From a virus, in the IMG/VR virus record IMGVR_UViG_3300037722_000333, positions 1-47,491 of that record: DNA of 47,491 bases; one strand, 5' to 3'. The position numbers and the translations under genes are program-made. Under the pieces are notes generated by a model. It saw only the letters and a program-made list of their open reading frames with translations, ran no database searches and was not told the origin of the DNA. Each line of letters begins with the position of its first letter. Position 1 is the stretch's first letter. Positions 5,060 to 43,104 of this stretch are shown piece after piece.

Positions 5060-8000
5060 CCGATGAGCTAATCTTCGCTGAGGATATTGGCCGATCTCGT
5101 GCTGAGGATGATTACGCGCCAACTACTTTGGACGCTACTTTTGATCCAGATCGACAAATCCTCACGCCGAATGAGAAATCATCTCAATTCCTTCAATATG
5201 GATTGCCTGCGGCTCTCGCAGGATTTGCGGATACCGTTGGCCAATCACTCGGCTTGATCGACGAAGAGCAAATGGCCGGCGCATTGCAGAACGTATTTCC
5301 ACAATTCGGCATGTTCTATAAGGAACATCAAGAAGGTGCGCAAGTTGCTGGTGATATGGTCGGAATGTTTATTCCGGGGATGCTTGCAGTTAAAGGAGTG
5401 CGAGCGGCCAGTAGTTTGGCTAGACAGATTTCTCCAAACTCCAAACTTGTGCAATCTCTCTTTACATCTGGGAAAGCTGCCGATGAATTAGTGGCGACAG
5501 TTGCTGCACGAGATCAGTTTCTCGCCGGTCGGGGATTGCAATTGGGCGTAATCAAGGATGATGTGCGAAAAGGGCTAGTTTACGCAGCAAGAAGGACGAA
5601 GATACTCGACAGTTTTAAAGAAGCTGCCGCTTTCGAATTGGGCGTTGCTGCTACAATGAACCAATCGGAAGTTCTCTATCCCGATGAATTCTCAGTGATG
5701 GAGAATTTCTTGCTAGCGGCGGCACCGGCTGGCGCATTTATCGGTGCAGAAGCTGTCTACTTCAATCGATTGCTGCGGAATTCACTCACTAATATTGAGG
5801 GATTAGCACTTCGAGGTCTCGACCCGCAAGATATGCTGGGTGCTGAACGCACTTCTAAACCTGGCAATCGCGACGTTAAAGTTACGATCAATGCGGTTGC
5901 CGCATCTGCTAATCAGAAGGCTCTGCAAGATATTATCGATAAGCACGCTCGCGGAGTTGGGATTGCGGAAGAGGACACACTCGCAACTTCGGCTCATAAC
6001 TCATTTATACAGTCGTTAAACGCGGATACCCGGCATGAGATCGATGCAATGGCTGGGGACAATCCATATCGATTTACTAGCCGAGTTCAATTAAATGAAG
6101 GTGAAGCGTTGACGCTTATGGCGCAGGTGACTGATCCCAGTACTGGCAGTCCGGTCGCTCTCTTTGGAGTTCAATCGATTGAGCATATGCCCACTTCGCA
6201 AGTTGATATCGTCTCGCTTATACGAAAGCGTGAGAGTTCCATAACTGGGATTGAGAGCGAGATAAAGGAGCTGGCGGATGATCCAGCAACTTACAGCGAT
6301 AAGGGCAAAATTAAGAAACTGGGTGATTTGCAAGAAGAGCTGAACCGCCATAAGGCAAGTCAATTTATCGTATATGAACCGAATGGTGGAATGACAACTC
6401 TGCAAGATTACCGCATTGGTTTCCACGATACCGACGGTAGATTGCGAAAGACGAACCGCACGCAGATTGAGCCAGGCATATGGAAGATTGATTTCAATGA
6501 TGGACAACGGCACCCCACTATCGGGATTGATGAGGAATTTAATCTAGTTCTGCCCGCTATTAAAGATGTGGTGGTTAACGGGGTTAACGTAACTCACATA
6601 CTTCCGCTGAATAAGACGTTTAAGGCGGGGGAAGATTTCTCGCTGATCTTACTTGATATGGGTTATGATTGGCATTTCATGAAAGGTACTCGTGGTAAGG
6701 ATATATTCGAGTCTCTACCAAGAGAGATTCAATCTGAAATCCACAACTGGACTGGTTCATCTAGCTCTAGTAAAATTCGAGAGTGGGTAGAGTCTGGTGA
6801 TCCAAGAGCGCAGTTGATCTATCAAGCGTATGAACCAATGCGTATGCGATTGAAAGAATTGGCTGATCCAGATGGTACGATTACACTTATGCGGGGTGAG
6901 CATAGTTCTGAAACTAAAGCTATTGAAGCTGGGGCTGATAATGTAAATGATGTAGTATCAATGACTTCTGACCCGGGGATTGCTAAATCATTTGCAGATC
7001 GTGATGGATATAATGTACTGACTCGCCGTGTGCCAATCGAAGATGTGATTATGATCGTTGGCGGTAGCGGTCACGAGTATGAATACATCGTAAAGGGCAA
7101 TTCCCGTCGTTCGTTGGGTGAGAAGATAACCCCCCAATCTTGGGAAGGTCTCGAATATAAGGAAAAAACAGCTATCTGGTATGGAATTCAGGAGGCGATA
7201 GATAAATTCGATAGCCATAATACGAAATTCATCCTAAACCCCAATGACCACTATACTAAGCTGGATGCAGTCACTCGTTTGATAGAACTGCACGGCGATG
7301 ACGCATTGCGAAGTATTGATTTTGGCTCGTTTAAGGACGTTAAGCAAATCCAGTTCGCTTCGTTGGCGCAGAAATTTCAAGATTACGTTCGCGCGAGAAC
7401 CGTGCAGAATAGCACTGTCGGCGATAATCCCATACTCAAGCTGGTGAAAGATAAGAAACCCACTATCGGCGAATTAGTTAATCAATTCAATCTCCCCGCT
7501 ATGTTACCTGATGGGCGTCTCGACCCTACCGTGGAACTTTTCGAAGCGCTATTTACGGAAGGTCGTACTAAGCTATCGGATGCATTTAACACACTGGATC
7601 AGTTTGAACAGGCGGTACTTCGAGTTCAACGCCCCTACGAAGTTATTGAATTTCTAAATCGTCCAGTTCGTACGATGGGGAGGATGCTGGAGTATAATAA
7701 AAAGGCGAAGCCGGTACTTGGAGTTATGATCCCACCCCAAGTAACCGACTATACCCACGATGCGCTTATGAGAAAATCCGCGGCTCTCAATATGGAGAGG
7801 TTGAGTAAGCTAAGATCTGCGGATCAATCCGGCGCATTTATCGTCAAGACTATCGCCGACGTAATGGATAGCATTCCCGCTACTCAAGCGGCTAAGCAGG
7901 TTCATCTACTTCAGGAAGGTGAACAACGTGGTACCGGACTGGGCCGTCCACAATCAGAAGTATTTCGCGAGAGCGTTGCGTTGCGTGGTAGCGATGAGTT

Positions 8001-10740
8001 AGCGAGTAACGTAGATCGACAAGCCAACACGTTAATCAATGAGAGAATTTTCGCACCCCACACAGGGACATTTTCACGTTTGCGTGGTGGACAGAATACC
8101 GGATCGCTGGAAAGTTTCAACTTACTGATGCACGCTAATCGACAAGGATGGGATTTGGCGGAAGAGGTGGTCGATCTCGGCGAAGGCAAATTTGCATATG
8201 AGCTACTGGACACATCTCGTAATCGCGAACTTTGGCGCAATAATGGATTTGATGAGCGCCACTTAAACTTTGATACGCAAATGCTTATGCCAGCACCGGC
8301 TCGCGGAGACGGATTTCCTACAGCTGCGGTTGGTGACGAGTTAGCTATCGAAGCGTTCTCCGCAATTACATCCATGTCACGGCAAGCCGGTATTGAGAAC
8401 AACGCGATTAATCGCGCGTTGAGTTTGCCGGAAATTCACTTGAAGAACCACCATGTGCCGCCGCGGAATTTTCTTGGCAAGGAGGTGATCTATCTTGCCG
8501 ATGATCAGAATAACATAATCGGCATGGTATCAGGTAAGACAAAAGGCGAGGCTCAATCATTCGCACAGAAGGCCGAGGCAAACTATCGAGAGGAAGGCCG
8601 CGCAATTCATCAACTCACTTCGGATGATATATCAAAACATCTGGAGGCCAAGGACTTGTTCTTCGAGTCTGGGTTAAAAGATTTCTCAGATAGCTTCCGT
8701 CAAACTGGAAAAGCGCGGGGCCGTTCTGGTAGCTCAATTATCGAAACTGGTACTGGTGTTCTCGACGGCGCAATCGAATCCCTGCAACGGCAATTTCAAT
8801 CTACCATCCGCAGAACCCGTGCAGCTTATCTTGATCCGCAGATTGGCTTTGTTAAGCAACTTCACAATGCCGCTAGTCCGGAGAGTAGCAAAACCGGTCA
8901 AGATGTATACCAGCGGTGGCTAGCTAATGTATATGGGAATACGCAAGTTAATCCGAACGACGCCATCACCCGCATATACAATGCTATTGAGAGTGGTTAT
9001 GACGATGTACTGAATGCATTGGCTACTCGACAAACCCAATTACTCGGCAGGAACGCTAACGTAACTCGTGACGATAAGAAGCGCTTTGAAGCGTTGGAGA
9101 AGAAGTTAGGTGCCTACAATCCATATGAGTCAACTCTCGATTTCATGGAACGTACACATCGAGTTAAACCGCCAGCGTCCATGCGTAAACATATGGCAGC
9201 TCTCAATAATTTAACCACCTTCTTAACCCTGGGAATGTTTGAAGCTGGACACGCGTTATTGAACCTAACCTCGCTCGCTGCTACAATGCCCGGCGTTATT
9301 AAAGCAATGAATAGGCTGCCGCACGAAACTCCGGAACAATTCGGCGCACGTATTGGCGCATTCGGTACAGCCGTAACTGACGGCGTTGGAATGTTCTCAC
9401 CAGCACGCGCTATTGCAACTGGCATACACGATTGGTGGCAGCCAGAGTTTCGTGAGCAAATGCGACGTGCTGCGAATAAAGGATACTTCCGTCAAGAAAT
9501 TGCTGAAATGGTTCATTCGATAACTGAGCCAAGACAGAACTATGCAGCTTCGATAGCGCAGAAATTCGTCGATATTACCTCTGTGCTATCTCGCAAATCA
9601 GAAGAACTCTCCCGCACAATCGCGTTCGCTACCGGAATATCGATTGCAAAGCGTGGACTTAAGTTGGAGAACGAAGATGCGATGTTTGCATTCGCTCACC
9701 GTTTTGCAAATGACGTGATTGGCGATTATCGTCCCTCGAACAGACCTCGCATGTTCCAAGGTGCAGTCGGTATGCCACTTGGACTTTTCTCTACATTCAT
9801 GCTGAACTACTATAACCGCGTTTTCAATATGATTGAAAACCGTCAACTTGGCGCATTAGCTACACAGTATGCAACACAAGCTAGCGTATTCGGCGCACAG
9901 ACAGTTCCGGGGTTTGATCAGTTTTCGCAAATCTTCGCAAGCAATTATGACGGTACTGTGAACCCGGTTGATGGATTTCGTAAGCTAGTTGGCAATGACG
10001 ACATTACTGACGCAATCATGTACGGTAGTCTGTCCACCCTGCCGAAACTATTTGGCGCGGAGGACGGTATTGGTATTACGACACGAGGTGACATTAATTT
10101 TGTTCGGGTTCCAACATTATTTACTCCCGCTTCCGCCCCCGGAATTCAAATGGTTGTTAACTTTGGTACAGCATTGCGGAAAACATTCGAGGGAATTCGT
10201 CAGGAAGGTGGTATTTCTCAACAGCAAATGCTGGAGATAGCAGGCAATTACGCGCAAAACCGAGCGCTAAAGAATATGGCGATGACTTGGGCGGGCTATT
10301 CTGTTGATAAGCGCGGACAAGTTATTGACGACGATATCCGCGACGGCCTATCGATTTCAGCCCACGTAATGGGAATGCGCACGCTGCAAGAAGTAAAGAA
10401 GTTAGAAACTCTCCAGCGAGTACGGACCGCGAGTCTATCACAACGTGATCGCGCATTGCAATTGCAGGATAATCTCGGCGCGAAGATACGCGCTAATGCG
10501 CAGGGAACCCGCGATCTAACCGGGGAAGATATCGCTAATGCAGTTGGCGAACATATGCGATATGGCGGTTCACCTAGCGGGATCGGACAGTATCTAGCTA
10601 ATCAGCACAAACGCGCATTAGTTGATACGCCTACGCGGCTACTCATGGATAAGATGCGCATCCCAAGTGAGTCAGCTAATGTTGAACGCCTTATGTCCAT
10701 AATGGATTTGCCAGCTAATGATCCAGAGTTTACAGATTAA
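5056..10740 (+). CDS. giant internal virion / ejection protein (1894 aa) with embedded ADP-ribosyltransferase-like domain
   Basis: Last gene of the late operon. Hydrophobic segments near both ends. R-S-ExE signature: R613 in TLMRG (nt 6892), S635-M-T-S in VVSMTSDPGIAKSF (nt 6958), E674-Y-E676 in GHEYEYIV (nt 7075-7083). Confidence 0.7.
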   Translation: MTDELIFAEDIGRSRAEDDYAPTTLDATFDPDRQILTPNEKSSQFLQYGLPAALAGFADTVGQSLGLIDEEQMAGALQNVFPQFGMFYKEHQEGAQVAGDMVGMFIPGMLAVKGVRAASSLARQISPNSKLVQSLFTSGKAADELVATVAARDQFLAGRGLQLGVIKDDVRKGLVYAARRTKILDSFKEAAAFELGVAATMNQSEVLYPDEFSVMENFLLAAAPAGAFIGAEAVYFNRLLRNSLTNIEGLALRGLDPQDMLGAERTSKPGNRDVKVTINAVAASANQKALQDIIDKHARGVGIAEEDTLATSAHNSFIQSLNADTRHEIDAMAGDNPYRFTSRVQLNEGEALTLMAQVTDPSTGSPVALFGVQSIEHMPTSQVDIVSLIRKRESSITGIESEIKELADDPATYSDKGKIKKLGDLQEELNRHKASQFIVYEPNGGMTTLQDYRIGFHDTDGRLRKTNRTQIEPGIWKIDFNDGQRHPTIGIDEEFNLVLPAIKDVVVNGVNVTHILPLNKTFKAGEDFSLILLDMGYDWHFMKGTRGKDIFESLPREIQSEIHNWTGSSSSSKIREWVESGDPRAQLIYQAYEPMRMRLKELADPDGTITLMRGEHSSETKAIEAGADNVNDVVSMTSDPGIAKSFADRDGYNVLTRRVPIEDVIMIVGGSGHEYEYIVKGNSRRSLGEKITPQSWEGLEYKEKTAIWYGIQEAIDKFDSHNTKFILNPNDHYTKLDAVTRLIELHGDDALRSIDFGSFKDVKQIQFASLAQKFQDYVRARTVQNSTVGDNPILKLVKDKKPTIGELVNQFNLPAMLPDGRLDPTVELFEALFTEGRTKLSDAFNTLDQFEQAVLRVQRPYEVIEFLNRPVRTMGRMLEYNKKAKPVLGVMIPPQVTDYTHDALMRKSAALNMERLSKLRSADQSGAFIVKTIADVMDSIPATQAAKQVHLLQEGEQRGTGLGRPQSEVFRESVALRGSDELASNVDRQANTLINERIFAPHTGTFSRLRGGQNTGSLESFNLLMHANRQGWDLAEEVVDLGEGKFAYELLDTSRNRELWRNNGFDERHLNFDTQMLMPAPARGDGFPTAAVGDELAIEAFSAITSMSRQAGIENNAINRALSLPEIHLKNHHVPPRNFLGKEVIYLADDQNNIIGMVSGKTKGEAQSFAQKAEANYREEGRAIHQLTSDDISKHLEAKDLFFESGLKDFSDSFRQTGKARGRSGSSIIETGTGVLDGAIESLQRQFQSTIRRTRAAYLDPQIGFVKQLHNAASPESSKTGQDVYQRWLANVYGNTQVNPNDAITRIYNAIESGYDDVLNALATRQTQLLGRNANVTRDDKKRFEALEKKLGAYNPYESTLDFMERTHRVKPPASMRKHMAALNNLTTFLTLGMFEAGHALLNLTSLAATMPGVIKAMNRLPHETPEQFGARIGAFGTAVTDGVGMFSPARAIATGIHDWWQPEFREQMRRAANKGYFRQEIAEMVHSITEPRQNYAASIAQKFVDITSVLSRKSEELSRTIAFATGISIAKRGLKLENEDAMFAFAHRFANDVIGDYRPSNRPRMFQGAVGMPLGLFSTFMLNYYNRVFNMIENRQLGALATQYATQASVFGAQTVPGFDQFSQIFASNYDGTVNPVDGFRKLVGNDDITDAIMYGSLSTLPKLFGAEDGIGITTRGDINFVRVPTLFTPASAPGIQMVVNFGTALRKTFEGIRQEGGISQQQMLEIAGNYAQNRALKNMAMTWAGYSVDKRGQVIDDDIRDGLSISAHVMGMRTLQEVKKLETLQRVRTASLSQRDRALQLQDNLGAKIRANAQGTRDLTGEDIANAVGEHMRYGGSPSGIGQYLANQHKRALVDTPTRLLMDKMRIPSESANVERLMSIMDLPANDPEFTD

Positions 10741-10834: not shown

Positions 10835-11419
10835 TTAACTTGCGGGGCTTTCGGGTCCCGCATTTTTTGTAGGCATTAGAACGCCCCATGTGGTGAATAC
10901 CAACATGCGTATCTGTATGATGCAATCGATCTTTGCATCGTGTTTGCCGGCAAGATCACAGTGTGTTTGTACCTCTTTTACATCCATACCGTTGGTGTCT
11001 ATGTAGGTGTACACATCCCGCGCACTGCGATGTGAGAATGGCCAACTCACATTGTCGTCACGGAAATGTTTCTGCAACATTGGGATATCGAATGCGGTGG
11101 GTTTTGCCCAGATTAGCGTGTTCTTAAGTTCGTCGTCGTAGTATTCTTCCAACCAATATTTGATTTCTTCTGGGGTCATTTGCGGTAAACCGGCCTCTCG
11201 CAAATCAATTTCATGCTTATCGCGGAATTCTTGTGTGGAATGGTAACACTCATACATTGTACTAACATCCAACCTAGCATGCAGGATATTATCATAATCG
11301 ATAATCTTATCCAACTCCGGCGTAATCCCAAACGGCACCATCGCAAGGCTACTAACACCATGCAGCGCTGTATCTAATCCAAACGTTTCCACATCCAACA
11401 TGATATTCTTATACGTCAT
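10835..11419 (-). CDS. DEDDh-type 3'-5' exonuclease (194 aa)
   Basis: ExoI IMLDVETFG, ExoII AFDIPML, ExoIII HDAKIDC. The start is placed at ATG 11419, preceded by AAGAGGAG, rather than at the GTG at 11449 in the track. Confidence 0.7.
   Translation of the reverse strand: MTYKNIMLDVETFGLDTALHGVSSLAMVPFGITPELDKIIDYDNILHARLDVSTMYECYHSTQEFRDKHEIDLREAGLPQMTPEEIKYWLEEYYDDELKNTLIWAKPTAFDIPMLQKHFRDDNVSWPFSHRSARDVYTYIDTNGMDVKEVQTHCDLAGKHDAKIDCIIQIRMLVFTTWGVLMPTKNAGPESPAS
10842..10868 (+). terminator. intrinsic terminator of the late operon
   Basis: GCGGGGC-6 nt loop-GGTCCCGC (7 pairs including one G.U) followed by ATTTTTT. Lies inside the 3' end of the convergent exonuclease gene. Confidence 0.6.
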
Positions 11420-11852
11420 TTTGCAGTACTCCTCTTTTCTGAAACTCACGATATATCACCATGATATATTTAAACTGTCCTTCAGACAAACGTTTTCCAG
11501 ATTGGATCCAATCGAGCATATCGCAGATGAAGATTTCCCAATCTTCGGGAATTCCATCAACTGCATCGATCATTGAATAGATTTGTCTAACGATACGGTT
11601 AGCATCAACAACCTTTCCCGGCGTACGGGGGTTGATCGCGATTTGCTTAGTAGCGAGTGCCGTCATATTGATGACAAGGTGGACCGCCTCAAGGATAAAA
11701 TCCGCAGCTTGCTTAATCACCTTCTCATCAGCGCCGGTAGTTTTCAACTGCGCGAGTCCCGTTTTCTTATCGAACGCAATCACCAGCACGGTTGAGAATT
11801 CGTAGGTTTTTGCGATATAGTCTGGCACGTTCTGCGGAATTTCCTTGGGCAT
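11409..11852 (-). CDS. hypothetical protein (147 aa)
   Basis: ATG 11852 overlaps the upstream stop (TAATG) and is preceded by GGAGAGGAA. The track's longer start (11885) would overlap the upstream gene. Confidence 0.6.
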   Translation of the reverse strand: MPKEIPQNVPDYIAKTYEFSTVLVIAFDKKTGLAQLKTTGADEKVIKQAADFILEAVHLVINMTALATKQIAINPRTPGKVVDANRIVRQIYSMIDAVDGIPEDWEIFICDMLDWIQSGKRLSEGQFKYIMVIYREFQKRGVLQNDV

Positions 11853-13150
11853 TATTGCAGTTCCTCTCCGGTTAAACTTTGCCAAATGTCCAACGCTTCC
11901 GTAGTCTTTGGATCATTATACACATAAGTAATACCATGCACTTCGCTAGTTATCTGAGTGATCTTCGCCGCAGCTTTCATCTCCTCCAACGAATTCATAA
12001 AATCTGCACGCTTCATATCACTGCCCATAACTCCCCATAGTACTCTCTGCGATACTGGACCACGCGCATACTGCAGAAACTCGATCATCTTCTGCCTTGC
12101 AAGTGAGATGGGCGAGAGACCAAATTCTCCCAGCGCTTCTGGCATTCCAACTTCAGTTTCCTCCAGTATCGCCAGTGCGTTCTGAACGTCTTCCTCCACG
12201 ATAGTCATGGACAGCCGCGATAACGCTAGGCAGCTTGCCAATTTCTTCACATGGATATGGCGCCTATCCAGATAGTAGATAAATCTTGGATCATTCAATT
12301 TTGTTCTCACCTTATAACTCTGCCTAAATAACTCTCTCGCACCGTGAGTAGGCTTTAGCACGCCATCCATCTTATAGAATATCGTCGAATACACCGATTT
12401 AATCTGCGCGGCCATCTGCTTATCCAATGGTGCTGGTTCTGCTACATCTTTATACGGGCGATTATCATATACGAGAACTAGCCTACTAGTAAAACCGTGG
12501 TCAACACTAGTAGGCGGGAGGATTCCAGCCATGCTAGTGGGAGTTGTTCCGGCGAGAATACTCATGAGCGGCTTCGGCAACACCATTCTCGTATTCTTTA
12601 GCCGATACTCATACGCCTCTCCATCGAAACATTTATTTAGAAGCGTAATAATCTCCATAGAATTCTGCCCCATAAGACTGCCGAATTCGGTAGCAACTGC
12701 ATATAGGCAATTATCATCCCGCGAGTCAACCCGGATTTGCTGTTCTCTCAACTTAAGCAATAACGCTTCCTGGGAAATTTCCTTACCGCTAATTAACATA
12801 TCTGCCACAGCATCAAATTCCCCTGGTTCCTCAATATCGCTACCATCCAATGCCGCAATCAGCCCTTGTCGCTTTCCGCCCGTATCATCTGGAGCAAACT
12901 TTACCTCAGTAACTTCGCGGAGCATTTTCGTCATTATGTTGATTGCCGTATTCTTTCTGCTAGCCGGCGGCCCGACAAGTATGATATAACTATTCGGATA
13001 GATTTCTTCGATACCGAAATCATAGTAAATCCGCCTGCCCGCGCACGCAGCAATCCCTGATAGGGCACACCAGATGTGAAAGAGTCTTGGGCTTTCGGTA
13101 TCTTCCACATAATCGAGATATAGCTTGAGAAAGTCATTGGCGATTTTCAT
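11852..13150 (-). CDS. P-loop NTPase, putative replicative helicase (DUF3987/D5-like?)
   Basis: 432 aa with the Walker A-like ILVGPPASRKNT. Sits in the replication module. Family assignment is from memory only. Confidence 0.45.
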   Translation of the reverse strand: MKIANDFLKLYLDYVEDTESPRLFHIWCALSGIAACAGRRIYYDFGIEEIYPNSYIILVGPPASRKNTAINIMTKMLREVTEVKFAPDDTGGKRQGLIAALDGSDIEEPGEFDAVADMLISGKEISQEALLLKLREQQIRVDSRDDNCLYAVATEFGSLMGQNSMEIITLLNKCFDGEAYEYRLKNTRMVLPKPLMSILAGTTPTSMAGILPPTSVDHGFTSRLVLVYDNRPYKDVAEPAPLDKQMAAQIKSVYSTIFYKMDGVLKPTHGARELFRQSYKVRTKLNDPRFIYYLDRRHIHVKKLASCLALSRLSMTIVEEDVQNALAILEETEVGMPEALGEFGLSPISLARQKMIEFLQYARGPVSQRVLWGVMGSDMKRADFMNSLEEMKAAAKITQITSEVHGITYVYNDPKTTEALDIWQSLTGEELQ

Positions 13151-14783: not shown

Positions 14784-17303
14784 TTAACCGTAATTTCGGG
14801 TCTGCATTTCCATCTCATGCTGCCGCATCTTATGCAACAGTTCGCTATCTGCCAAATCAGGATTAAACCCCACCATCCACTTATCTCCCCACGAAAATCC
14901 GCACTTACCTTCTGCGGGCACTGTGAATTCCCGTCCCTTTATCATACACGGTTGTTCCATCAATGTCAAGCACTTTCTTGCTAAATCGATACGATCAATC
15001 GGGATTTGCCATAAGATGCTGTCATGAGTTTGTGTAAGAAACATGGTTCCATGTTCTTCCAAATCAGAACGGTAATAATAATCGAGTAGGGTTTTATTAA
15101 TGGCGCCGCTAGTTCCACCCTGTCCATAATATGCGCTAAGCTCTCGTTGAATATCAGGGGATTTTGCCATATTTCCAAAGAACAGTCGAGTACGACCGAA
15201 CGCACAGGTTGCTTTATTTCCATTGGCAATCGCATCATCGAGTGATTTACGAAACCAGGGGCGTAATCGCGGGTAAAGAACATGATAACTATCCAGAAGT
15301 TTTTGGCAGAAGGTAACCAACTTATCTAATCCCCAAGTACCGGCATCGACATAACCAAGTTGAATTGCGGCAGCTATTGCAGCATCGTGCTTCATCGTTA
15401 TATACAGAGTAAAGCCGCTCATCTGGAAATTGCTTCCGTGCACAATCCGCTTGGTGTTTTGCCGTACACCTTTCAACGGATGGACGACCCAATCTTCTTT
15501 CCTCTTATATGCCTCATATATCTTATCATATGGAACTTTAAAGAAATGCTCTGCATGAACACAGTGTGTATCTCTATCTCCCAGCATAGTCGCGATATAT
15601 TTCTCATCCTCCGCTTCATGTGCAACGTAGTAAGCGTCAGATTGTGAGTAATCTATCTCAAGAAAGAAATAGCCTTCATCAGCAACCACCATATCTTTTA
15701 TCCTATCCGGAACATTCTGGGCAGCTTGTCCTACCCAGAATTGATGGCCCTTCGAATTAAATCTTCCAGTTTCGGTCCCCGCTGCGCCAAGTGCATACAG
15801 CCATCTACCATTCTCCAGCCGCATACCAATCCATTTCTCTTTCCCATTCGCATCTTCTATCGTATGTAGCGGTCCATACTTGCTGATATTATTCGCAGGT
15901 TTCTTAGCTTCCCAGATTTCATCTATATATACAGCGAATAGCTGATGCTTAATTCTGATATTCTCCAACACTTTCTCATCAACAGATCGCGAGCTTTTCT
16001 TATTCTTACCCCTCTGCGGTATTGGCTTAGCGCCGAGCACATCATATATTAAACTAGCAACCTGATATGGTGAGTTGGGATTGAATTCTTCATTATCTAC
16101 CATGATCCGCAATTTCTTCAATGCCGCTTCAGACTCCTCTTGCCAAGCCTCCTTCTTCTGCCATTGCCGTTTACGGTCAACGCGAAATCCTCGCATACTC
16201 CCAGCTAGCGCGGGTCCAACCTGTAAACTGAATTCGACATTATAATTACTTCTTGCCCAATCCAACTTCGCTATTATGCGAACGAGCCAAATCGTATCTA
16301 ACAAAGTGTGCCATGTATCAAGTGCGCCATATCGCCAATAGCGCCACAAACGTTCCGGGTCTTTCGGTACTGTCTCATCCTTATCTCCTTTACTTTCATC
16401 CTTCCAGTATTGACAGTGATCCAGCAACATACTGGAGATAAAATTCAACTTCTTGGGCGCTTCTGTCCATATCGAATGAAATAAATGCAGAGAGTCCAGC
16501 AGGTAATTATTCAAAGGGATACGATACTTAATAAAATAAGCACAATCGTATGCACCATTCTGAAGAGTTTTGATAACTGCATTTCCATTAATTGATTTAC
16601 AGGCATTCCATGCGGCCACTTCCAAGTCTGGAGTATCCCAATAAATGCCACCAGCTTTTGTCGGGTCGATAAATGGGAATACATATGTCACCACCTTTCC
16701 ATCTGGCATGAGTGCGGAGTATTGGATAGAGGATAGCATCCCAAGTGCAGTTTCGCTATCCACCGCTATCAAATGTGCGTTGGCGCAATCACTAACGCAA
16801 CGGTCAATATCACTCTGATTAGCAACAACTTGATAACTAAACTTAGGTTCTTTCCTCCGTTTATCTTCCACCCATCGATTAATCTTCTTGCAATCTTCAT
16901 GCATCACCCAATTAAAATGGTTAACCGTGTTCAATTTAAGAATATTGTCAACTACGATACAGGGAATTTCCCCATACATGTATACACTGCCACGGCATAG
17001 ATCGAGACTGCGGTATCCGGTGAAAAATTCCAACGTCGCCTCGTCGTTAATTACGATAACTTTCGCCTGCAAATTAGCTAGATAGAATTCGACCCGCTTC
17101 TTAACCGCATCCATTCTCTCCGGGTTGAGTATCCAAGTTCCAGAAGTTCCTTTCTTCAGCACTTGCATATCTGGGATATTACGATGCAACGAATGAAACG
17201 CAATCGTTGCCGTATTAATACCGGCGGCTCGCGCGGATAGTTCTACCATCATGCGTTGAGCAGATGAGAAACCGCCACGTGTAAACCATAGGATATCAGA
17301 CAC
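14784..17303 (-). CDS. family-A DNA polymerase with 3'-5' exonuclease domain and an N-terminal extension
   Basis: 839 aa. Exo motifs LIAVDSETAL and QNGAYDCAYF. Pol motif A EIDYSQSDAYY, motif B RQNTKRIVHGSNFQMSG, motif C LTQTHDSILWQ. GTG start at 17303, so the start is uncertain. Confidence 0.9.
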   Translation of the reverse strand: MSDILWFTRGGFSSAQRMMVELSARAAGINTATIAFHSLHRNIPDMQVLKKGTSGTWILNPERMDAVKKRVEFYLANLQAKVIVINDEATLEFFTGYRSLDLCRGSVYMYGEIPCIVVDNILKLNTVNHFNWVMHEDCKKINRWVEDKRRKEPKFSYQVVANQSDIDRCVSDCANAHLIAVDSETALGMLSSIQYSALMPDGKVVTYVFPFIDPTKAGGIYWDTPDLEVAAWNACKSINGNAVIKTLQNGAYDCAYFIKYRIPLNNYLLDSLHLFHSIWTEAPKKLNFISSMLLDHCQYWKDESKGDKDETVPKDPERLWRYWRYGALDTWHTLLDTIWLVRIIAKLDWARSNYNVEFSLQVGPALAGSMRGFRVDRKRQWQKKEAWQEESEAALKKLRIMVDNEEFNPNSPYQVASLIYDVLGAKPIPQRGKNKKSSRSVDEKVLENIRIKHQLFAVYIDEIWEAKKPANNISKYGPLHTIEDANGKEKWIGMRLENGRWLYALGAAGTETGRFNSKGHQFWVGQAAQNVPDRIKDMVVADEGYFFLEIDYSQSDAYYVAHEAEDEKYIATMLGDRDTHCVHAEHFFKVPYDKIYEAYKRKEDWVVHPLKGVRQNTKRIVHGSNFQMSGFTLYITMKHDAAIAAAIQLGYVDAGTWGLDKLVTFCQKLLDSYHVLYPRLRPWFRKSLDDAIANGNKATCAFGRTRLFFGNMAKSPDIQRELSAYYGQGGTSGAINKTLLDYYYRSDLEEHGTMFLTQTHDSILWQIPIDRIDLARKCLTLMEQPCMIKGREFTVPAEGKCGFSWGDKWMVGFNPDLADSELLHKMRQHEMEMQTRNYG

Positions 17304-19974: not shown

Positions 19975-20204
19975 GATTTATTCTCGTTATCTGTTTCTTG
20001 CTCGTTTAATTTAAATCTTATCTTTTCAAGATTTTTATAAAACATATGCATTATACCGTGTTCCATTTTTGTAAATTCTGTCGGTTTACCTATTTTCAAA
20101 CTCTCTATCAATCTATGAAACATATCATGAGCAACGCAAAGTTCTACTCGATCAAGCGTCAACATGATTTTCTCAGTTTTCGTAACTTTCGATTCGATTT
20201 TCAT
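19971..20204 (-). CDS. hypothetical protein (77 aa)
   Basis: ATGA-coupled ORF in the operon. Confidence 0.55.
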   Translation of the reverse strand: MKIESKVTKTEKIMLTLDRVELCVAHDMFHRLIESLKIGKPTEFTKMEHGIMHMFYKNLEKIRFKLNEQETDNENKS

Positions 20205-21169
20205 GCCGCAATCTCCAAATCCAGCTTAACCCAGGGTTCAATCTTACTCTCATAGTAGTCGCGATTATCCATCGCAATCAGCGTCTTAACCTGCTCTACC
20301 GTATCATATTGACAAACATCCCAGAATTGACACGGCCTGTTATATGCAAAACATCCACTACTTTGCCTGCGAAATCTCTGGCTATTGAATTGCAATTTTA
20401 TATTATAGAGATCAACCATCAAATCCTCTGCCCATGAGCGAATATCATAACTTGTGCGGTGAAAATCTAACATCCTCGATTGTGGATTAACTAAATCCAC
20501 ATATACACAGAGATACTTAAACGAGAGATTATCTACCTGCTCATTGAGAACATGCTCCAACACATACGCATACGGCAGAAGCTGCTCATCGAATGTATAC
20601 TTATACCCGGCAACAGATAAATCTTGCCTTGTCGTTTTCAAATCAACCACAACGTATTCACCTGTAAGTCGGTTGAACATAATCGCGTCGATAAACCCAT
20701 CGTAATATACCTCAATCGGCTTAACTGGCCGCAGCAATATCTGCCGTTTTGCCCGCAAATCAAATCCCTTCATCCTTATACTGAATGGAACTTCCACTGC
20801 TGGACGTAGCGAACCGTCGAGACAGCGTACTTGCGCGAGTTCGTACTCAACCAAATGACCTGATCGGCACAGCATTTTCATCGTAGCATAGCAGGCTTCC
20901 GGCGAGTAGTTGTATGCGGGATTGCTTACTAAATGTATCGGATGATGGACTAGCATTTTACCGATAGCCATATCGAGATTGCCTGATTGGAGGAATTCCT
21001 GATATCCAACATGGAGGGCTTTTCCTACTTCCGCCGGGATGCTTTCATCGCTACCGGGGTGGCGGAGAAATTTGCGAAATTCCAGTTTACGGTTGCAGCT
21101 ATGGTAGAGAGCCAGCGATGAGTGGGATAGGTGCAGTTCTGATATGTTATAGGATGTCATAATTTGCAT
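20201..21169 (-). CDS. PD-(D/E)XK nuclease, Cas4/RecB-like with probable Fe-S cluster
   Basis: Motifs GFIDAIMF, VVDLKT (D-x-K) and EQLLPYAY (QxxxY). One N-terminal Cys (YHSCNRK) plus C-terminal CFAYNRPCQFWDVC. Confidence 0.7.
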   Translation of the reverse strand: MQIMTSYNISELHLSHSSLALYHSCNRKLEFRKFLRHPGSDESIPAEVGKALHVGYQEFLQSGNLDMAIGKMLVHHPIHLVSNPAYNYSPEACYATMKMLCRSGHLVEYELAQVRCLDGSLRPAVEVPFSIRMKGFDLRAKRQILLRPVKPIEVYYDGFIDAIMFNRLTGEYVVVDLKTTRQDLSVAGYKYTFDEQLLPYAYVLEHVLNEQVDNLSFKYLCVYVDLVNPQSRMLDFHRTSYDIRSWAEDLMVDLYNIKLQFNSQRFRRQSSGCFAYNRPCQFWDVCQYDTVEQVKTLIAMDNRDYYESKIEPWVKLDLEIAA

Positions 21170-21782: not shown

Positions 21783-22139
21783 CTAAAGCACAAGATCATC
21801 CAGAATATCTTTCAATTCCGGATCGATAACCATTCGCTTACCGCGTTGTATCCTCACTACGGTTTCTGAGTTCGTCCCCAGTACATTGAGCAAACTCGTA
21901 TCCTTCACTTTACGTTCCTCGACGCTAACCACAATCATCTTGAAATGCTTCGGCTGCTTATTCGATACCCGTCTTGCAGTCGTTCTTAGCCGGGACAACT
22001 CAACCCGCATTGCATGAACGAATTTATCCGCATTTTCTTTTCCGCCGGGTAGTACAAATTGATAATCTTCTCCGTCCTTCGTCTTGCGGAGAAAATCTAT
22101 CAGCTTTAACTTAACCGGGGATGTGGATTTCTGTTGCAT
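21783..22139 (-). CDS. hypothetical basic protein (118 aa), apparently leaderless
   Basis: The ATG at 22139 has no SD and lies 6 nt downstream of a TTGACA-N17-TAAACT promoter. Confidence 0.55.
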   Translation of the reverse strand: MQQKSTSPVKLKLIDFLRKTKDGEDYQFVLPGGKENADKFVHAMRVELSRLRTTARRVSNKQPKHFKMIVVSVEERKVKDTSLLNVLGTNSETVVRIQRGKRMVIDPELKDILDDLVL

Positions 22140-22145
22140 CGCAGG

Positions 22146-22174
22146 AGTTTACCTTATCCAATGGCATTTGTCAA
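22146..22174 (-). promoter_or_regulatory. sigma70-type promoter (TTGACA-N17-TAAACT) for the replication-module operon
   Basis: Minus-sense read: ttttacTTGACAaatgccattggataaggTAAACTcctgcgATG. AT-rich upstream flank. Confidence 0.5.
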
Positions 22175-22192
22175 GTAAAAAATTTCATGTGA

Positions 22193-22462
22193 TTAACAAC
22201 GGCGGCTTAGATAATTCTCGTGCACGAATGCTATCACGGCATGGCGCGTATTTGCCGCATCGCTAGTTGCGCAGATTGGCAATCGCTGCAATTGCTCCAC
22301 TCGCGCAGAGAGAAGTTCGTCCGATTTCATGGCGATGATATCCTCTAATAGAGTGATTGTCATTTCACAGTGATTGCAGATTAGTGGTGGGAGTGCTTGT
22401 GCTGTGATAGCGATAGCGATACGGCCATCGCAGATAGAACAGAATATAGTGCGGGATTTCAT
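22193..22462 (-). CDS. zinc-ribbon protein (89 aa)
   Basis: CSIC...CNHC pairs. ATGA-coupled to the upstream ORF. Confidence 0.5.
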   Translation of the reverse strand: MKSRTIFCSICDGRIAIAITAQALPPLICNHCEMTITLLEDIIAMKSDELLSARVEQLQRLPICATSDAANTRHAVIAFVHENYLSRRC

Positions 22463-22680
22463 CGCTCCATTTTCCGTAAAGGTTTGAATCGTTTCCTTAT
22501 CGTTTTAAGGAATTGATAATGTCCAGTTACTTTCCCAACGTCATCGTAAACCAAATATCGCGTTTCTCTCGGTATCCAATTCTCCGGAATCATATCTGAC
22601 TCATATATTGTAGGGCGGTTATTCCGATAATATCCGCCAGTGGTAATCTTACGATAGAAATAGATTGGCAATTTTTTCAC
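22459..22680 (-). CDS. hypothetical protein (73 aa)
   Basis: GTG start in the track. Basic and Tyr-rich. Start uncertain. Confidence 0.45.
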   Translation of the reverse strand: MKKLPIYFYRKITTGGYYRNNRPTIYESDMIPENWIPRETRYLVYDDVGKVTGHYQFLKTIRKRFKPLRKMER

Positions 22681-22813
22681 TCCATTCTAAGGTATGCATA
22701 ATTATAAATGCCCCTACGATGATACAAAAAGTACTATCCCAATCTCTTATTAAATATAATCCTGCACCCGTTAATATACCAGCTAATCCTATTTGTAATA
22801 AAATTTCTATCAT
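22649..22813 (-). CDS. small membrane protein (54 aa, below the track cutoff)
   Basis: Hand translation: MIEILLQIGLAGILTGAGLYLIRDWDSTFCIIVGAFIIMHTLEWSEKIANLFLS, with two hydrophobic segments. ATGA overlap with the upstream micro-ORF. Confidence 0.4.
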   Translation of the reverse strand: MIEILLQIGLAGILTGAGLYLIRDWDSTFCIIVGAFIIMHTLEWSEKIANLFLS

Positions 22814-22893
22814 TGTAGCCAATCCCAGATAATGAGAATAAGGAATGTGAGTCCGAACGCTAGTAAAATGTCAACCACGGGAACGAGTAGCAT
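22810..22893 (-). CDS. micro-ORF encoding a 27-aa transmembrane peptide
   Basis: MLLVPVVDILLAFGLTFLILIIWDWLQ. The ATG lies 9 nt after GAGGAG. Confidence 0.35.
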   Translation of the reverse strand: MLLVPVVDILLAFGLTFLILIIWDWLQ

Positions 22894-22896
22894 GGT

Positions 22897-23181
22897 TCAA
22901 TACTCCTCATAAGATAAGGGACGTTGTCCATTAAGTATCATCTGCTCAGCTTTTTTAATCGCAGCGTTTAATTTTCTAAGATTTAATACATATATTGTCT
23001 CATCATTTGTTATTGAATAGTTATCCAAAAGGACTGTTAGAGAATAACCATTTATAGACAGTATCGATATCTTCGTATTGTCTGGATATCCAGATTTTAC
23101 ATAGCTGATTGAATATGCATCACGTTTATCTTCTTTAAAATCCTTTTTAATTAAGAAATTATGTAAACTGTGTTTATTCAT
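22897..23181 (-). CDS. hypothetical protein (94 aa), AT-rich island
   Basis: Start moved to ATG 23181, preceded by GGAGGATAAGATT. The track start (23196) is TTG. Confidence 0.55.
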   Translation of the reverse strand: MNKHSLHNFLIKKDFKEDKRDAYSISYVKSGYPDNTKISILSINGYSLTVLLDNYSITNDETIYVLNLRKLNAAIKKAEQMILNGQRPLSYEEY

Positions 23182-23244
23182 AATCTTATCCTCCAAATAC
23201 TAGCATTCGCACTAACCATGCGATGATTGTTTCTAGTAGGCTCA

Positions 23245-23463
23245 TTATTTATCTTCCCAAATTACATCAATAGTATTCTTATATTCTCCGTCTTTTGTAG
23301 TGTGGATTTTGGAAAATCTTCTAGTTGTTATATCATTATGTGTATGATACCACTCAGTTTCAAAATTTTCATTTTTGATTGCATCACAAATCAATACTTT
23401 CATATAATAATGACTATGACCAGATATTTTGATTTCTGTTTTATGTTCAGTTAGTTTATTCAT
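23245..23463 (-). CDS. hypothetical protein (72 aa), AT-rich island
   Basis: ATG preceded by AAGGAATAGGATT. No motif. Confidence 0.5.
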   Translation of the reverse strand: MNKLTEHKTEIKISGHSHYYMKVLICDAIKNENFETEWYHTHNDITTRRFSKIHTTKDGEYKNTIDVIWEDK

Positions 23464-23467
23464 AATC

Positions 23468-23668
23468 CTATTCCTTTCCAGTGCTAGACAGTTTCCCCAA
23501 ATCCTTTACCGCAATTCGCCGATAGTGTTTACCTTTCTTATTCCAGCGATAGTGTGTGTTGTGAATTTGGATGAATTCCGGGTTAGCGAGTCCGGGGATG
23601 AAACGATCTCCATCTTGCACGATGGTTCCGTCCGAATTACGTAGTTCGACACTATGTCCAGCGATCAT
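23468..23668 (-). CDS. hypothetical protein (66 aa)
   Basis: ATGA overlap with the upstream gene. Confidence 0.5.
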   Translation of the reverse strand: MIAGHSVELRNSDGTIVQDGDRFIPGLANPEFIQIHNTHYRWNKKGKHYRRIAVKDLGKLSSTGKE

Positions 23669-23988
23669 TTTAGCTTCCTTTCTTGGATAACTATTCTACG
23701 GTTATTTCCATCAGGTTTAAATTTTCCTTCAAGTATATCATTATCTTCTTGAAATATAAATCCAGCCTTTTCTAAAAAATGAATAAATTCTATTTTTACA
23801 GATGTTATACCTAATTGGTATTTTCCAGAAAATGTAATAGTTATATCTGCGTTATTGCTTAAAATTTCTATCTTTTTTAATTCTTCTCGAAATGTATTTT
23901 GAGCAACTTTTGACCAATTTATTTCTGGATGAAATTTCATCGCGTCCTGCAATTCTTTTGGAATTGATATTGTTTTTCTCTGTGTCAT
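23665..23988 (-). CDS. ribbon-helix-helix-like protein (107 aa)
   Basis: Start moved to ATG 23988, preceded by AAGGAG. The N-terminus MTQRKTISIPKELQDAMKFHPEINWSKVAQNTFREEL fits a CopG/RHH strand-helix-helix pattern. Confidence 0.45.
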   Translation of the reverse strand: MTQRKTISIPKELQDAMKFHPEINWSKVAQNTFREELKKIEILSNNADITITFSGKYQLGITSVKIEFIHFLEKAGFIFQEDNDILEGKFKPDGNNRRIVIQERKLK

Positions 23989-24028
23989 TTCGGCGCTTCT
24001 CCTTCGTTTAAATTTGAATTTTGCGATA

Positions 24029-24668: not shown

Positions 24669-25214
24669 CTACTCTCCAATCAAGTCAGCTATCTCAATGA
24701 ATACGTCCGCAGTTTTTCGCAATTCTTCTGACATGATTGGCGGGGTTATCTTGATGCTGGACATTACCGCTACTCGGATATTGCGGTTTTGCGCATATTT
24801 GACAAGTGGGGTAAAATCGCCATCGCCAGTTGCGAGGATTATTGTATCTATGCCATGTTGGCATGTTTCGATGAAATCCAATGCGATCTCGATATCCATA
24901 TTTCCTTTTTTGCTAATGCTTCCATCTTTTTGAGTGAAAGTTTTTCCATTTTTAGTCACTACATTATATCCATGATAGCTGAGAAAGTCCAACAACGGAC
25001 GTAAACGGTCAACGCCATTTTCATCAGTTATCACAGCGGTGTAGTAGTTAATCTTGCGAAGATTGCAAGCTGCGGATAACGTTAGCTGGAATTCCTCAAA
25101 ATCGAATTTTCGCCCAATTGCATTTACCGCAGTGTAGAAATTGCTCCCATCGATGAAAACCGCTACTCGTTCATCGTGGCGGAAATCGATTGTGCTCAAG
25201 TTTATCATAATCAT
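24669..25214 (-). CDS. NYN-domain (LabA-like) nuclease
   Basis: VAVFIDGSNFY ... NMDIEIALD ... ILATGDGDFTPLV ... IRVAVM reproduces the NYN/LabA pattern with the acidic residues intact. Its ATG overlaps the helicase stop (ATGA). Confidence 0.75.
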   Translation of the reverse strand: MIMINLSTIDFRHDERVAVFIDGSNFYTAVNAIGRKFDFEEFQLTLSAACNLRKINYYTAVITDENGVDRLRPLLDFLSYHGYNVVTKNGKTFTQKDGSISKKGNMDIEIALDFIETCQHGIDTIILATGDGDFTPLVKYAQNRNIRVAVMSSIKITPPIMSEELRKTADVFIEIADLIGE

Positions 25215-27142
25215 TTACTCGCTATCAGTTTGGGTTCCGGGAAATTCGGTTTCGGCTCATCCGGGTCAATATCAAACTGCGTATATGTTTTAATCTTATC
25301 CGCAATCGTCTTGCCCTTTATCTCTTGCCGCTGTATCGCTTTCTGCAATCCGCGATCATTCGCCAGTATGACAACGCGAAATTTAGCGCGAGTTGCCGCT
25401 GTGTACAGCCATTCACGGGTTAGCATTCTCGCATTAGCTGAGTGACATACGATTACAACGGTGCGGGCTTCACTACCTTGCATCTTGTGGCAAGTCATTG
25501 CATATGCATGGCAGAGTGTGCGATATTGGCCTGCTGTTGAGAATGTTACTTCGAGGTCTTCCGTCCCGTTATTGAATACGGCAGTTACTACGTGGGAAGA
25601 TGCGCGTTGGTTAATGTCGCCATCGTCTTCCAGCACAGTAACGTGCAGATCATCGGCCAAATTCGTGAGATCGAGTGAAAATCCGCTATCGAGTTTGACC
25701 GCATCATGCGTACCGATACCTTTGTTCCCATCATATTCGCCATTTAGGGAGATATCAACAATACGGCCCATCATGCCGTTGGAAAGTGAGCGTTTGCGGT
25801 CATTCTGAAGTAACATAATCTTATCATCGACTGCATAAGTAACTTGCGTTAATCCTGTGGTGATAACGATACGGCGATTGGTTTTATCAGGTTTCTCGGG
25901 ATTAAAGAAACGAACCAATTCTTCATTGATATTCAGCTGCCCGAGGACTTCTTTATTCTGCGGCACAATCAATGCGTCTTGAAATGGATCAAATGTGCCA
26001 TTCTTACTCATATATTTAATAACGTTAATCACTTTATCATATGCGGACAGACTTCCGTCCGGTAATTTCATAATGACGAATTTTTCCTTATCTTGAGTTG
26101 GGTAAAAACCTTGCAAGATATTGTGCGCTTGTTCTGCAATTACGCCCGCATTGCGATGCAATTTCTCCAGCGCATACACTGGCCACTTTATCATTGCATA
26201 ACCTAGCGCAGATTTGCCCATGATTGGCGTGAGTTGGTTGATATCGCCGATAATGATAATACGGCAATCGTCCGGCAATGCGGCTAGCAGTTCATTCGTT
26301 AGCGGAATATTCATCATTCCGCCTTCGTCTAGTACGCATATCTTGAAAGGTAGCTTATTCTCAACGGTGAAGGATGGCCGGAATATTCGTCTCTCGCGCC
26401 ACTCTTGCGTATCTTCATCGAGGAAATCTTCCATTACCGGAGCGTATCCGAGAGTGGCATGTACGGTGTTTGCCATTGGATGAAATTGCGGCGGTAGGTT
26501 GAGCTTCATTTGCTGGACTGCGCGCCCTGTGAATGCGCAGAAGCATATTGCTACGTTATATTGTTCTGGCGCCTTCTCATCTATCGCAGATGCGAGTTTC
26601 GTTGTATTCAGATTGATCGTTGGTAGCGTATTCTCTAACTGGCGCACTAGCTGTTTAATCGTTGTTGTCTTGCCCGTACCAGCAGCACCGATCAGCACAC
26701 CGTATTTCTGCTGCGAAAGTCCGGCTAATGCGGCAAGTTGGAATTCGTCCAATTGCACATCGCTTGGCGCCGGCGCTAGTCGCAAAACCGGCGGTTCATC
26801 GATTTCATCGTTTATGTTTTTTATTATCTGCTGAATTTCAGAACCATTGATTAAATCATTGGATTGACTATTTTCGTTAATTTCGAAATTTTCACTGGTT
26901 GTATTGCGCGCGGCTTCCGTTGCATTCGCTGCCTGTGGTTCCTTCGATTTTTTAATTAACTGCATTAGCGACATTGTCTTCAGCGCCGCCATGTCTTGCT
27001 TTTCAACAGCGCGGTTTGCCTGCTCTGCAATTCGCTTGGTTATACCCGTACCATAGAGGATATCATCCTTGCGAGTGGCGATAACGGATTTCGCCGCAGT
27101 CTCGGAAGGCGTGGATTTCTTTATCAGAAGGGGATTGCGCAT
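25211..27142 (-). CDS. RecD/Dda-like SF1B DNA helicase
   Basis: Walker A GAAGTGKTT, motif II VLDEGGMM, motif III IIIGDINQLTPI, C-terminal AMTCHKMQGSEARTVVIV. About 130 aa of low-complexity N-terminus. Confidence 0.85.
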   Translation of the reverse strand: MRNPLLIKKSTPSETAAKSVIATRKDDILYGTGITKRIAEQANRAVEKQDMAALKTMSLMQLIKKSKEPQAANATEAARNTTSENFEINENSQSNDLINGSEIQQIIKNINDEIDEPPVLRLAPAPSDVQLDEFQLAALAGLSQQKYGVLIGAAGTGKTTTIKQLVRQLENTLPTINLNTTKLASAIDEKAPEQYNVAICFCAFTGRAVQQMKLNLPPQFHPMANTVHATLGYAPVMEDFLDEDTQEWRERRIFRPSFTVENKLPFKICVLDEGGMMNIPLTNELLAALPDDCRIIIIGDINQLTPIMGKSALGYAMIKWPVYALEKLHRNAGVIAEQAHNILQGFYPTQDKEKFVIMKLPDGSLSAYDKVINVIKYMSKNGTFDPFQDALIVPQNKEVLGQLNINEELVRFFNPEKPDKTNRRIVITTGLTQVTYAVDDKIMLLQNDRKRSLSNGMMGRIVDISLNGEYDGNKGIGTHDAVKLDSGFSLDLTNLADDLHVTVLEDDGDINQRASSHVVTAVFNNGTEDLEVTFSTAGQYRTLCHAYAMTCHKMQGSEARTVVIVCHSANARMLTREWLYTAATRAKFRVVILANDRGLQKAIQRQEIKGKTIADKIKTYTQFDIDPDEPKPNFPEPKLIASK

Positions 27143-42586: not shown

Positions 42587-43104
42587 TGGCGACAGGCGAT
42601 ATCAGCCAGAAATGGGCGGCTGACACACAATTAACAATTACTCTGGCATCGCTTGCGAGCGACACGAACCTGCTTGCGGGTCGAGAATCCGCGGCCTACC
42701 AGATCGACGGGCTGAGTTTTGTTGAGGACGTGTTGCTGTCCGGCAAGATCACAACAGGCACCAGCCCGACCGATGCCCGAAAAATCGAGGTATGGGTTGC
42801 AGCACCGATCAACGACACGCCGACATGGCCGGACGTGTTAGACGGCACGGACAGCGACGAGACCATTACCAGCGAACAGATAAAATTCGGCGCATTACGA
42901 TTGGCGGCGGTTCTCCCAACGAACAATGCTAGTGACACTACGTATCCGTTCGCGCCTGTCTCGGTCGCTTCTCTTTTCGGCGGCGTTTTGCCGACAGATA
43001 TCGTCGTATTCGTGGTTCACAACACGGGCGTCAACCTGAATTCTACAGGCGGAAACCATGAAATAAGCGTCCAGCCGATCTATCGGAACGCAGTTCTGGC
43101 GTAA
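42586..43104 (+). CDS. hypothetical tail-module protein (172 aa), GC-rich cassette
   Basis: TAATG coupling on both sides. Confidence 0.55.
   Translation: MATGDISQKWAADTQLTITLASLASDTNLLAGRESAAYQIDGLSFVEDVLLSGKITTGTSPTDARKIEVWVAAPINDTPTWPDVLDGTDSDETITSEQIKFGALRLAAVLPTNNASDTTYPFAPVSVASLFGGVLPTDIVVFVVHNTGVNLNSTGGNHEISVQPIYRNAVLA

Follow-up and report, generated by a model that had tools for sequence, protein, structure and literature searches.

An R-S-E ADP-ribosyltransferase-like domain in the giant, putative ejection protein of a podovirus

The virus record IMGVR_UViG_3300037722_000333, analysed here over its full length of 47,491 nucleotides (nt) and called the window below, encodes a giant protein of 1894 amino acids (aa), and a reading of the DNA without database searches had proposed that an ADP-ribosyltransferase (ART) domain is buried in it. 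This raises the question whether the giant carries an enzyme that enters the host together with the phage DNA. As that sequence-only reading had described, the domain lies mid-protein in the largest gene of the structural module. We conclude that residues ~532–722 are very probably a homologue of ARTs with an Arg-Ser-Glu (R-S-E) active site and that this domain is probably active, while its putative role as an injected early effector is the one towards which we lean on balance. The full account, in which a packaged and ejected, intact R-S-E ART modifies host proteins before the phage is expressed, is our preferred explanation and is held with moderate confidence.

The sequence strings on which the proposal was based are IHNWTGSSSSSKIREWV (residues 562–578, nt 6739–6789), TLMRGEH with R613 (residues 610–616, nt 6883–6903), VVSMTSDPGIAKSF with S635, T637 and S638 (residues 633–646, nt 6952–6993) and GSGHEYEYIVKG with E674 and E676 (residues 670–681, nt 7063–7098). 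All of them were found at the residue numbers given for them and within nt 6700–7100, and the described spacing was recovered as well, with 22 aa from R to S and 39 aa from S to E. Taken alone, such a pattern is not significant: R-x(15-50)-S-x-[ST]-x(30-45)-E-x-E arises in ~48% of 2000 shuffles of the giant. That the motif is real rather than due to chance follows from its conservation across 44 homologues, which were collected at E ≤1e-3 in an exhaustive HMMER search of 1.84 billion representatives. This set includes the window's own protein at 100% identity, the others sharing 25–55% identity, and 40 of the 44 are longer than 1600 aa (roughly 1900 aa) and possess the ART-like domain at the equal place. 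A word-indexed homologue search with the domain and with the domain alignment gave no match and likewise missed the query protein itself.

Within the homologues R613 is kept in all 44 sequences, G614 and S635 in 43 each, and position 637 is S or T in 43, while A643 and F646 are each present in 40 of 44. E676 is retained in 43 of 43 sequences and E674 in 42 of 43, the one deviation being a Q, which at the first E of E-x-E is a known ART variant. The full-length alignment of the 40 giants contains only eight invariant columns out of 1894, three in the ART-like domain (R613, D663, E676) and five outside of it (N1056, P1373, P1564, G1613, P1618). Residues 551–700 form the conservation peak of the N-terminal two-thirds of the giant, and R613, S635, E674 and E676 are the best-conserved polar residues of the entire protein. 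Since these residues had been chosen from one sequence without an alignment, and yet turned out to be the best-conserved polar ones, we regard this as the strongest single argument for a catalytic site. Conservation of the R, S and E positions had been named beforehand as a point on which the proposal could fail; the positions are essentially invariant.

A structural model points in the same direction. AlphaFold2 was run for residues 532–722 on a 41-sequence alignment of the domain (A1) and yielded a model of six helices followed by five strands with a predicted local distance difference test score (pLDDT) of 88.7 and a predicted template modelling score (pTM) of 0.77; without alignment the model was unusable (pLDDT 37). 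R613 is located on the first predicted strand (model residues 77–85) and S635 on the second (model residues 103–106), followed by a helix (109–115) with A643 and F646. D663 is model residue 132, between strands 121–129 and 133–136, and is a possible equivalent of the phosphate-nicotinamide loop in C3-like ARTs. E674 and E676 are found at the entry to the fifth strand (model residues 145–148), preceded by a Gly-rich loop. In a Foldseek search against the PDB every one of the 50 listed matches has an ART-superfamily or ART-like fold, the highest probability being 0.89, so that the structure search, a second test set in advance, listed ART and ART-like folds only. The best match is CDTa (E 0.042, probability 0.82, TM-score 0.39); C2-I, Plx2A, Certhrax, C3bot1/2, C3larvin and Tpt1/KptA are also among the matches, as are PARP10/14, TreX, PltA and the ART-like domains of IcmQ and CNF. 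An ART-type fold of the domain is thus supported by prediction. In BFVD, five uncharacterised viral proteins were matched at E 5e-7 to 1e-4, whereas the named ARTs follow with an iridovirus ART exoenzyme (E 3.7e-3) and, up to E ~0.13, a C3-like ART, the VIP2 protein of phage Gumball and MuF ("head morphogenesis") fusions. Two of these uncharacterised BFVD matches, A0A6J5L165 and A0A0F6R7E8 of Sinorhizobium phage phiM9, are free-standing proteins of ~230 aa, which suggests that the unit of helical bundle plus core may also exist as a stand-alone phage protein.

Profile comparisons place the domain closest to ModA and ModB of phage T4. The A1 profile aligned with T4 ModA at P 3e-4 and with ModB at P 1.8e-4 in hhalign, and with an alignment of eight ModA/ModB sequences (family PF26816 in the precomputed Pfam annotation of the collection) at a probability of 82.8% and P 9.4e-6, over 36 columns that cover R and S-x-[ST] but not ExE. 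In these alignments L-Y-R-G and S-x-[ST]...A..F of the domain are in register with ModA/ModB. The score against an Alt-family alignment from eleven phages is low (P 0.0022, probability 13%), yet the way the motifs line up makes sense: W-x-G-S-S...[IL]-R-x-W, the motif of the N-terminal helix, falls on Y-x-G-S-x-Y..I-N of Alt, the R (tlyRg in Alt) and STS pair too, and at low stringency G-x-x-E-x-E-F-I-V pairs with E-x-E-V-I-L-P across a ~60-aa insertion of Alt. As a control, the accepted paralogues ModA/ModB were compared with this Alt profile and obtained no higher score (P 0.0018, 14.8%). The only Pfam family that recurs is DRAT (PF07357), which was matched over the R-to-S region by 11 of the 41 members with a best E of 0.0018. 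All DRAT matches are below the gathering score, and the window's own domain reached 12.6 bits compared to a gathering score of 25 (E 0.14). Scans of the single domain sequence against NCBIfam, PADLOC and PHROGs found no ART family and Pfam gave weak DRAT alone, and tblastn of the domain against phage records returned two chance-level matches only. Conservation, fold and profiles together mark the domain as a divergent R-S-E ART that is not a recognisable member of PF03496.

Several results weigh against this reading and have to be set beside it. PF03496 (Alt/VIP2/C3) was matched neither by the window protein (E up to 10) nor by the 41 family members (E up to 1), although this library gives T4 Alt 124 bits. 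The domain is accordingly not demonstrably a PF03496 member: of the proposed C3/VIP2/Alt-type ART the R-S-E assignment stood, by fold and conservation, but membership in that family (0 of 41) did not. The domain passed no curated Pfam threshold, no ART-annotated PHROG was matched by the 41 members, and neither phmmer of the domain nor two profile hidden Markov model searches against PDB sequences found an ART, the output being helical noise confined to the bundle at the N-terminus. In hhalign, no match was obtained with full-length T4 Alt used as a single sequence. Foldseek returned no PDB match at E ≤1e-3, its TM-scores lie between 0.35 and 0.39, and no match to a characterised ART is individually significant. 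From E-x-E onwards the model has only one strand, after which come a stretch of low confidence and a helix, so that the modelled segment does not show the last strands of a canonical ART core. With respect to delivery, the sole support for a virion location of the giant is the annotation "structural protein" on a homologue from another phage (PaMx41), and the hydrophobic peaks of the giant (Kyte-Doolittle, 19 aa) are weak, none being a strong transmembrane signal. Among the scanned ORFs (open reading frames) of ≥150 aa no Macro or ARG hydrolase gene for immunity or reversal was found, which leaves the protection of the producing cell unexplained.

The ART-like domain occurs across the whole family of these giants, including ORF23 of phage PaMx41. 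The A1 profile matched residues 637–784 of PaMx41 ORF23 with 40.5 bits (LYRG, S-Y-T, E-R-E) and residues 660–750 of gp20 of EBPR podovirus 3 with 35.7 bits (LLRG, S-F-T, E-M-E). The two proteins, of 1849 aa and 1844 aa, are syntenic with the giant of the window and show an equal gene order. PaMx41 ORF23 is annotated as "structural protein", a 2026 preprint calls PaMx41 gp23 an "unknown structural protein", and the PaMx41 group is classified in the Fredfastierviridae. In a literature search that did not extend to the original PaMx41 paper or the supplement of a 2022 survey, no publication credited this giant with an ART; according to that survey ARTs are present in only ~3% of podoviruses (PMC9503650). 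A domain that is conserved in at least 44 clusters of giant proteins was missed by Pfam, PHROGs, NCBIfam and PADLOC. Cultured Pseudomonas aeruginosa phages such as PaMx41, a current model for work against the cyclic oligonucleotide-based anti-phage signalling system (CBASS), carry the domain, and the idea is therefore testable in the laboratory.

What we infer about packaging, ejection, topology, catalytic activity, acceptor residue and target of the putative ART can be put together as one course of events. The giant of this ~47-kb podovirus would probably be a late product that enters the capsid during packaging and serves as an internal (ejection) protein. Gene order on the plus strand makes it the final and largest gene of the structural module, ejection proteins of podoviruses occupy this position (PMC8954989), and the three ORFs of 293, 814 and 1894 aa in series resemble the small, medium and giant order of gp14, gp15 and gp16 in T7. 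By analogy with these T7 proteins, the giant may be expelled with the DNA and build a conduit for it. T7 gp16 has a central part, flanked by two membrane regions, that protrudes into the cytoplasm (PMC8954989), and the ART domain, situated between the hydrophobic segments (97–236 and ~1400), could reach the cytoplasm in the same way as the centre of gp16 and could find nicotinamide adenine dinucleotide (NAD+) there, weak as these segments are. Hydrophobic segments at both ends had been part of the sequence-only reading; peaks are indeed present at residues 97–115, 218–236 and 1400–1418, but all are weak (1.23–1.58), and the N-terminal ones are at most putative membrane-inserting segments. The likeness to gp16 stood for the gene order, with the largest gene last after two smaller ones, and failed for homology, as no T7 or P22 gp16 was matched in Pfam or PHROGs.

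In the active site, R613 and S635 would hold NAD+ and E676 together with E674 would form the catalytic pair. The E-x-E form is typical of arginine-specific protein ARTs of the R-S-E clade and suggests arginine as acceptor of the predicted enzyme. The domain would then mono-ADP-ribosylate host proteins, one or several of them, ahead of all phage gene expression. The scanned ORFs included no recognisable phage RNA polymerase, which makes early use of the host polymerase plausible. T4 Alt is packaged and injected and modifies host RNA polymerase, and ART domains are also found in virion-embedded polyvalent proteins (PMC5512222, PMC9503650).

Delivery of ARTs by virions is as such already established by Alt, MuF-ART fusions and polyvalent proteins. 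Distinctive is here an R-S-E triad, below the thresholds of PF03496 and DRAT, mid-protein in a giant, ejection-type protein of a podovirus. T4 Alt is likewise an R-S-E ART, made late, carried by the virion and modifying the host before phage transcription, features that the giant would share by prediction. However, Alt is a separate head protein of 682 aa from a myovirus, recognised by PF03496 with 124 bits, whereas the domain here is embedded in an 1894-aa podovirus giant and lacks the ~60-aa insertion of Alt between STS and ExE. ModA and ModB are the closest profile match, but are free-standing proteins of 200–207 aa that are not packaged, and ModB has ~72 aa from STS to ExE compared to 39 aa here. 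The best structural matches, over 170–195 columns, are C3-like and binary-toxin ARTs (CDTa, C2-I, C3bot1, C3larvin, Plx2A, Certhrax), which share the layout of an N-terminal helical region and a beta core; identities are only 12–15% at TM-scores of 0.35–0.39, and these enzymes are secreted bacterial toxins that act on eukaryotic actin or Rho. Their STS to ExE distance of ~38–40 aa is comparable to that of the window domain, while their R to S distance is ~45 aa, versus 22 aa here. DraT is an arginine-specific R-S-E ART to which the family is linked by the sub-threshold Pfam matches, but it regulates a cellular process together with its counterpart DraG, and the ORFs scanned here yielded neither an ARG nor a Macro partner.

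The polyvalent proteins offer the closest parallel in architecture. Their ARTs belong to the Tox-ART-HYD2 clade with an H-Y-D active site, as described by Iyer et al. 2017, and the virion RNA polymerase of Roseovarius Plymouth podovirus 1 carries an ART domain of the polyvalent type (PMC5512222). In both cases the ART resides inside a very large podovirus protein that is delivered by the virion (for the giant by prediction), is encoded with the late or virion genes, here the terminase-portal-capsid-tail module, and is predicted to act early. The triad is R-S-E here and not H-Y-D, and no second effector domain was recognised in the giant besides the ART-like domain and a C-terminal PLxRFG-type module. 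T7 gp16, which is also the largest and last internal-protein gene after two smaller ones, also contains an enzymatic domain inside an ejection protein, as is putative for the giant; in T7 this is a lytic transglycosylase acting on periplasmic peptidoglycan, as opposed to the predicted NAD+-dependent reaction in the cytoplasm.

Other explanations were weighed against this account. A chance motif in a domain unrelated to ARTs is hardly credible. The loose motif does occur in about half of the shuffles and no curated threshold was passed, but conservation, a top-50 structural list made up of ART folds, recurrent DRAT matches and in-register profile alignments agree with each other, and we rejected this explanation on the grounds of conservation and fold. 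An ART-derived fold without catalysis, kept for structure or for binding as in the ART-like domain of IcmQ or the inactive ART-fold domain at the N-terminus of binary toxins, would be in line with the weak structural scores, the C-terminal strands missing from the model and the presence of non-catalytic ART-like folds (IcmQ, CNF) among the matches. Inactive ART folds lose their triad, though, while R613 and E676 are invariant here and S635 and E674 are kept in 98% of 40–44 sequences at 25–55% identity, which renders this alternative quite improbable.

If the domain is an active enzyme, its chemistry or its timing may still differ from our proposal. It could be an NAD+-using enzyme other than a protein mono-ADP-ribosyltransferase, either a glycohydrolase that lowers NAD+ or destroys NAD+-derived signals, or an enzyme that modifies nucleic acid, be it the end of the entering DNA or the DNA or RNA of the host, like R-S-E ARTs of the pierisin or Scabin type or the RNAylating ModB. 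Fold and triad fit these chemistries equally well, Tpt1/KptA RNA enzymes are among the structural matches, and ModA/ModB are closest by profile, of which ModB can in addition transfer NAD-capped RNA (PMC9503650). We nevertheless consider this unlikely: the Tpt1/KptA matches span only ~90 columns versus 170–195 for toxin ARTs, and a strict E-x-E is typical of protein ARTs that modify arginine. An ART that is active but late, in the producing cell or on phage or virion components or itself during assembly, would suit the place of the gene in the late structural module, and the best sequence relatives ModA/ModB act after expression and are not packaged (PMC5512222). Yet the ART is covalently joined to a giant whose counterpart in PaMx41 carries a structural annotation, and the giant has the position of podovirus ejection proteins (PMC8954989), so that we regard late action as distinctly unlikely. 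A more far-reaching reading is that the ejectosome itself is the enzyme, the giant holding the ART domain at the cytoplasmic mouth of the DNA channel, where it would ADP-ribosylate whatever the entering genome encounters first; host RNA polymerase, an exonuclease, a restriction or defence protein or the leading DNA end could be the target. This is a speculation to which we give little credence. If true, genome entry would be coupled to a local, expression-independent disarming of the host, and this would be an ancestral, conserved trait of a podovirus lineage comprising the PaMx41 group and many uncultured relatives.

Packaged ARTs are best known from T4 Alt and from the H-Y-D domains of polyvalent proteins. 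If the domain described here is active, the giant protein of this lineage gains a function, and an R-S-E ART joins the enzymes of ejection proteins, which so far are mainly peptidoglycan hydrolases and the N4-type RNA polymerase. The lineage would also lend itself to genetic study of the question which modifications a phage has to make within seconds of infecting its host.

Table 1 Features of the giant gene and of the surrounding genome in the window
Feature	Position (nt)	Strand	Remarks
Giant ORF, 1894 aa	5056..10740	+	Single open frame without stop; putative internal virion/ejection protein
ART-like domain, residues 532–722	6649..7221	+	N-terminal helical bundle ~532–603, then beta core ~607–680
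R613, predicted region 1 arginine	6892..6894	+	L-[YFLW]-R-G-E context; 44/44 homologues; invariant in 40 giants
S635-M-T637-S638, S-x-[ST] motif	6958..6969	+	Second strand, then helix with A643 and F646
D663	7042..7044	+	Invariant; short turn between predicted strands 3 and 4
E674-Y-E676, E-x-E motif	7075..7083	+	Entry to fifth strand, after Gly-rich loop GGSGH
Two moderately hydrophobic segments, residues 97–115 and 218–236	5344..5763	+	Kyte-Doolittle 19-aa means 1.40 and 1.58
Moderately hydrophobic segment, residues 1400–1418	9253..9309	+	Kyte-Doolittle 19-aa mean 1.23
C-terminal conserved module, PLxRFG-type domain, residues ~1450–1843	9403..10584	+	phrog_16165, E 8e-30
Two ORFs upstream of giant, 293 aa and 814 aa	1730..5059	+	Ejection-protein assignment from position only
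Large terminase	32966–34411	+	
Portal	34411–36303	+	
SU10-type major capsid protein	37335–38525	+	
Tail genes		+	Module crosses window start into ORFs of 303, 293, 814 and 1894 aa
Rv2179c-like 3'-5' exoribonuclease domain protein	10835–11449	−	Directly downstream of giant gene, convergent
Primase	11852–13150	−	
DNA polymerase A	14784–17303	−	
PD-(D/E)XK nuclease	20201–21169	−	Replication arm
NYN-domain protein, 181 aa, predicted RNase	24669–25214	−	Pfam E 2e-30; adjoins Dda-like helicase in early/replication arm
Dda-like helicase	25211–27142	−	

The C-terminal module (Table 1) is the strongest conservation peak of the giant, at residues 1551–1600 around N-R-P-R-M-F-Q-G. Its match to the PLxRFG domain model NF032893 of NCBIfam (E 7e-6) is under the cut-off of the model. 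The module is common to the structural giants of PaMx41, 119X, PaP2, Tiera, EBPR podovirus 3 and one Aeromonas phage. By tblastn of the whole giant against phage records, in which this module alone was matched, it was found in 19 records, mostly of the PaMx41/119X/PaP2 group and Tiera, and megablast of the giant gene against phage records gave no match. Beyond the ART-like domain and the C-terminal module, the rest of the giant matched nothing in Pfam, PHROGs, NCBIfam or PADLOC. Near-invariant polar residues (R272, D458, E1312, R1513/E1516/R1520) are present in regions of the giant without family assignment, and further functional sites may hide in its other invariant or near-invariant regions.

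The window represents a closed phage genome of ~47.4 kb, in which bases 47365–47491 repeat bases 1–127 exactly (127 b). Given this repeat, either the assembly closes into a circle of ~47,364 bp or the genome carries a short terminal repeat. The module of structural genes spans the window ends, with the order terminase-portal-capsid-tail-giant on the plus strand, and the replication genes are encoded on the minus strand. The start of the giant ORF overlaps the stop of the 814-aa ORF by 4 bp; neither this ORF nor the 293-aa ORF had a match in Pfam or PHROGs, and no tRNA genes were found in the genome. One public contig was seen to encode the giant protein of the window, namely the 47,382-bp Logan assembly from run SRR12682375. 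The lowest G+C content of the genome (36%) is observed at 22001–24000, a stretch without any ORF of ≥150 aa that could hold small early genes or serve in regulation. The G+C content is 55% in the block at 42–44 kb and ~45% elsewhere in the genome, and the block may stem from horizontal transfer. Within it, a 278-aa ORF (43104–43940, plus strand) has a concanavalin-A-like lectin/glucanase domain (Laminin_G_3, E 4e-13), and a receptor-binding module is likely here.

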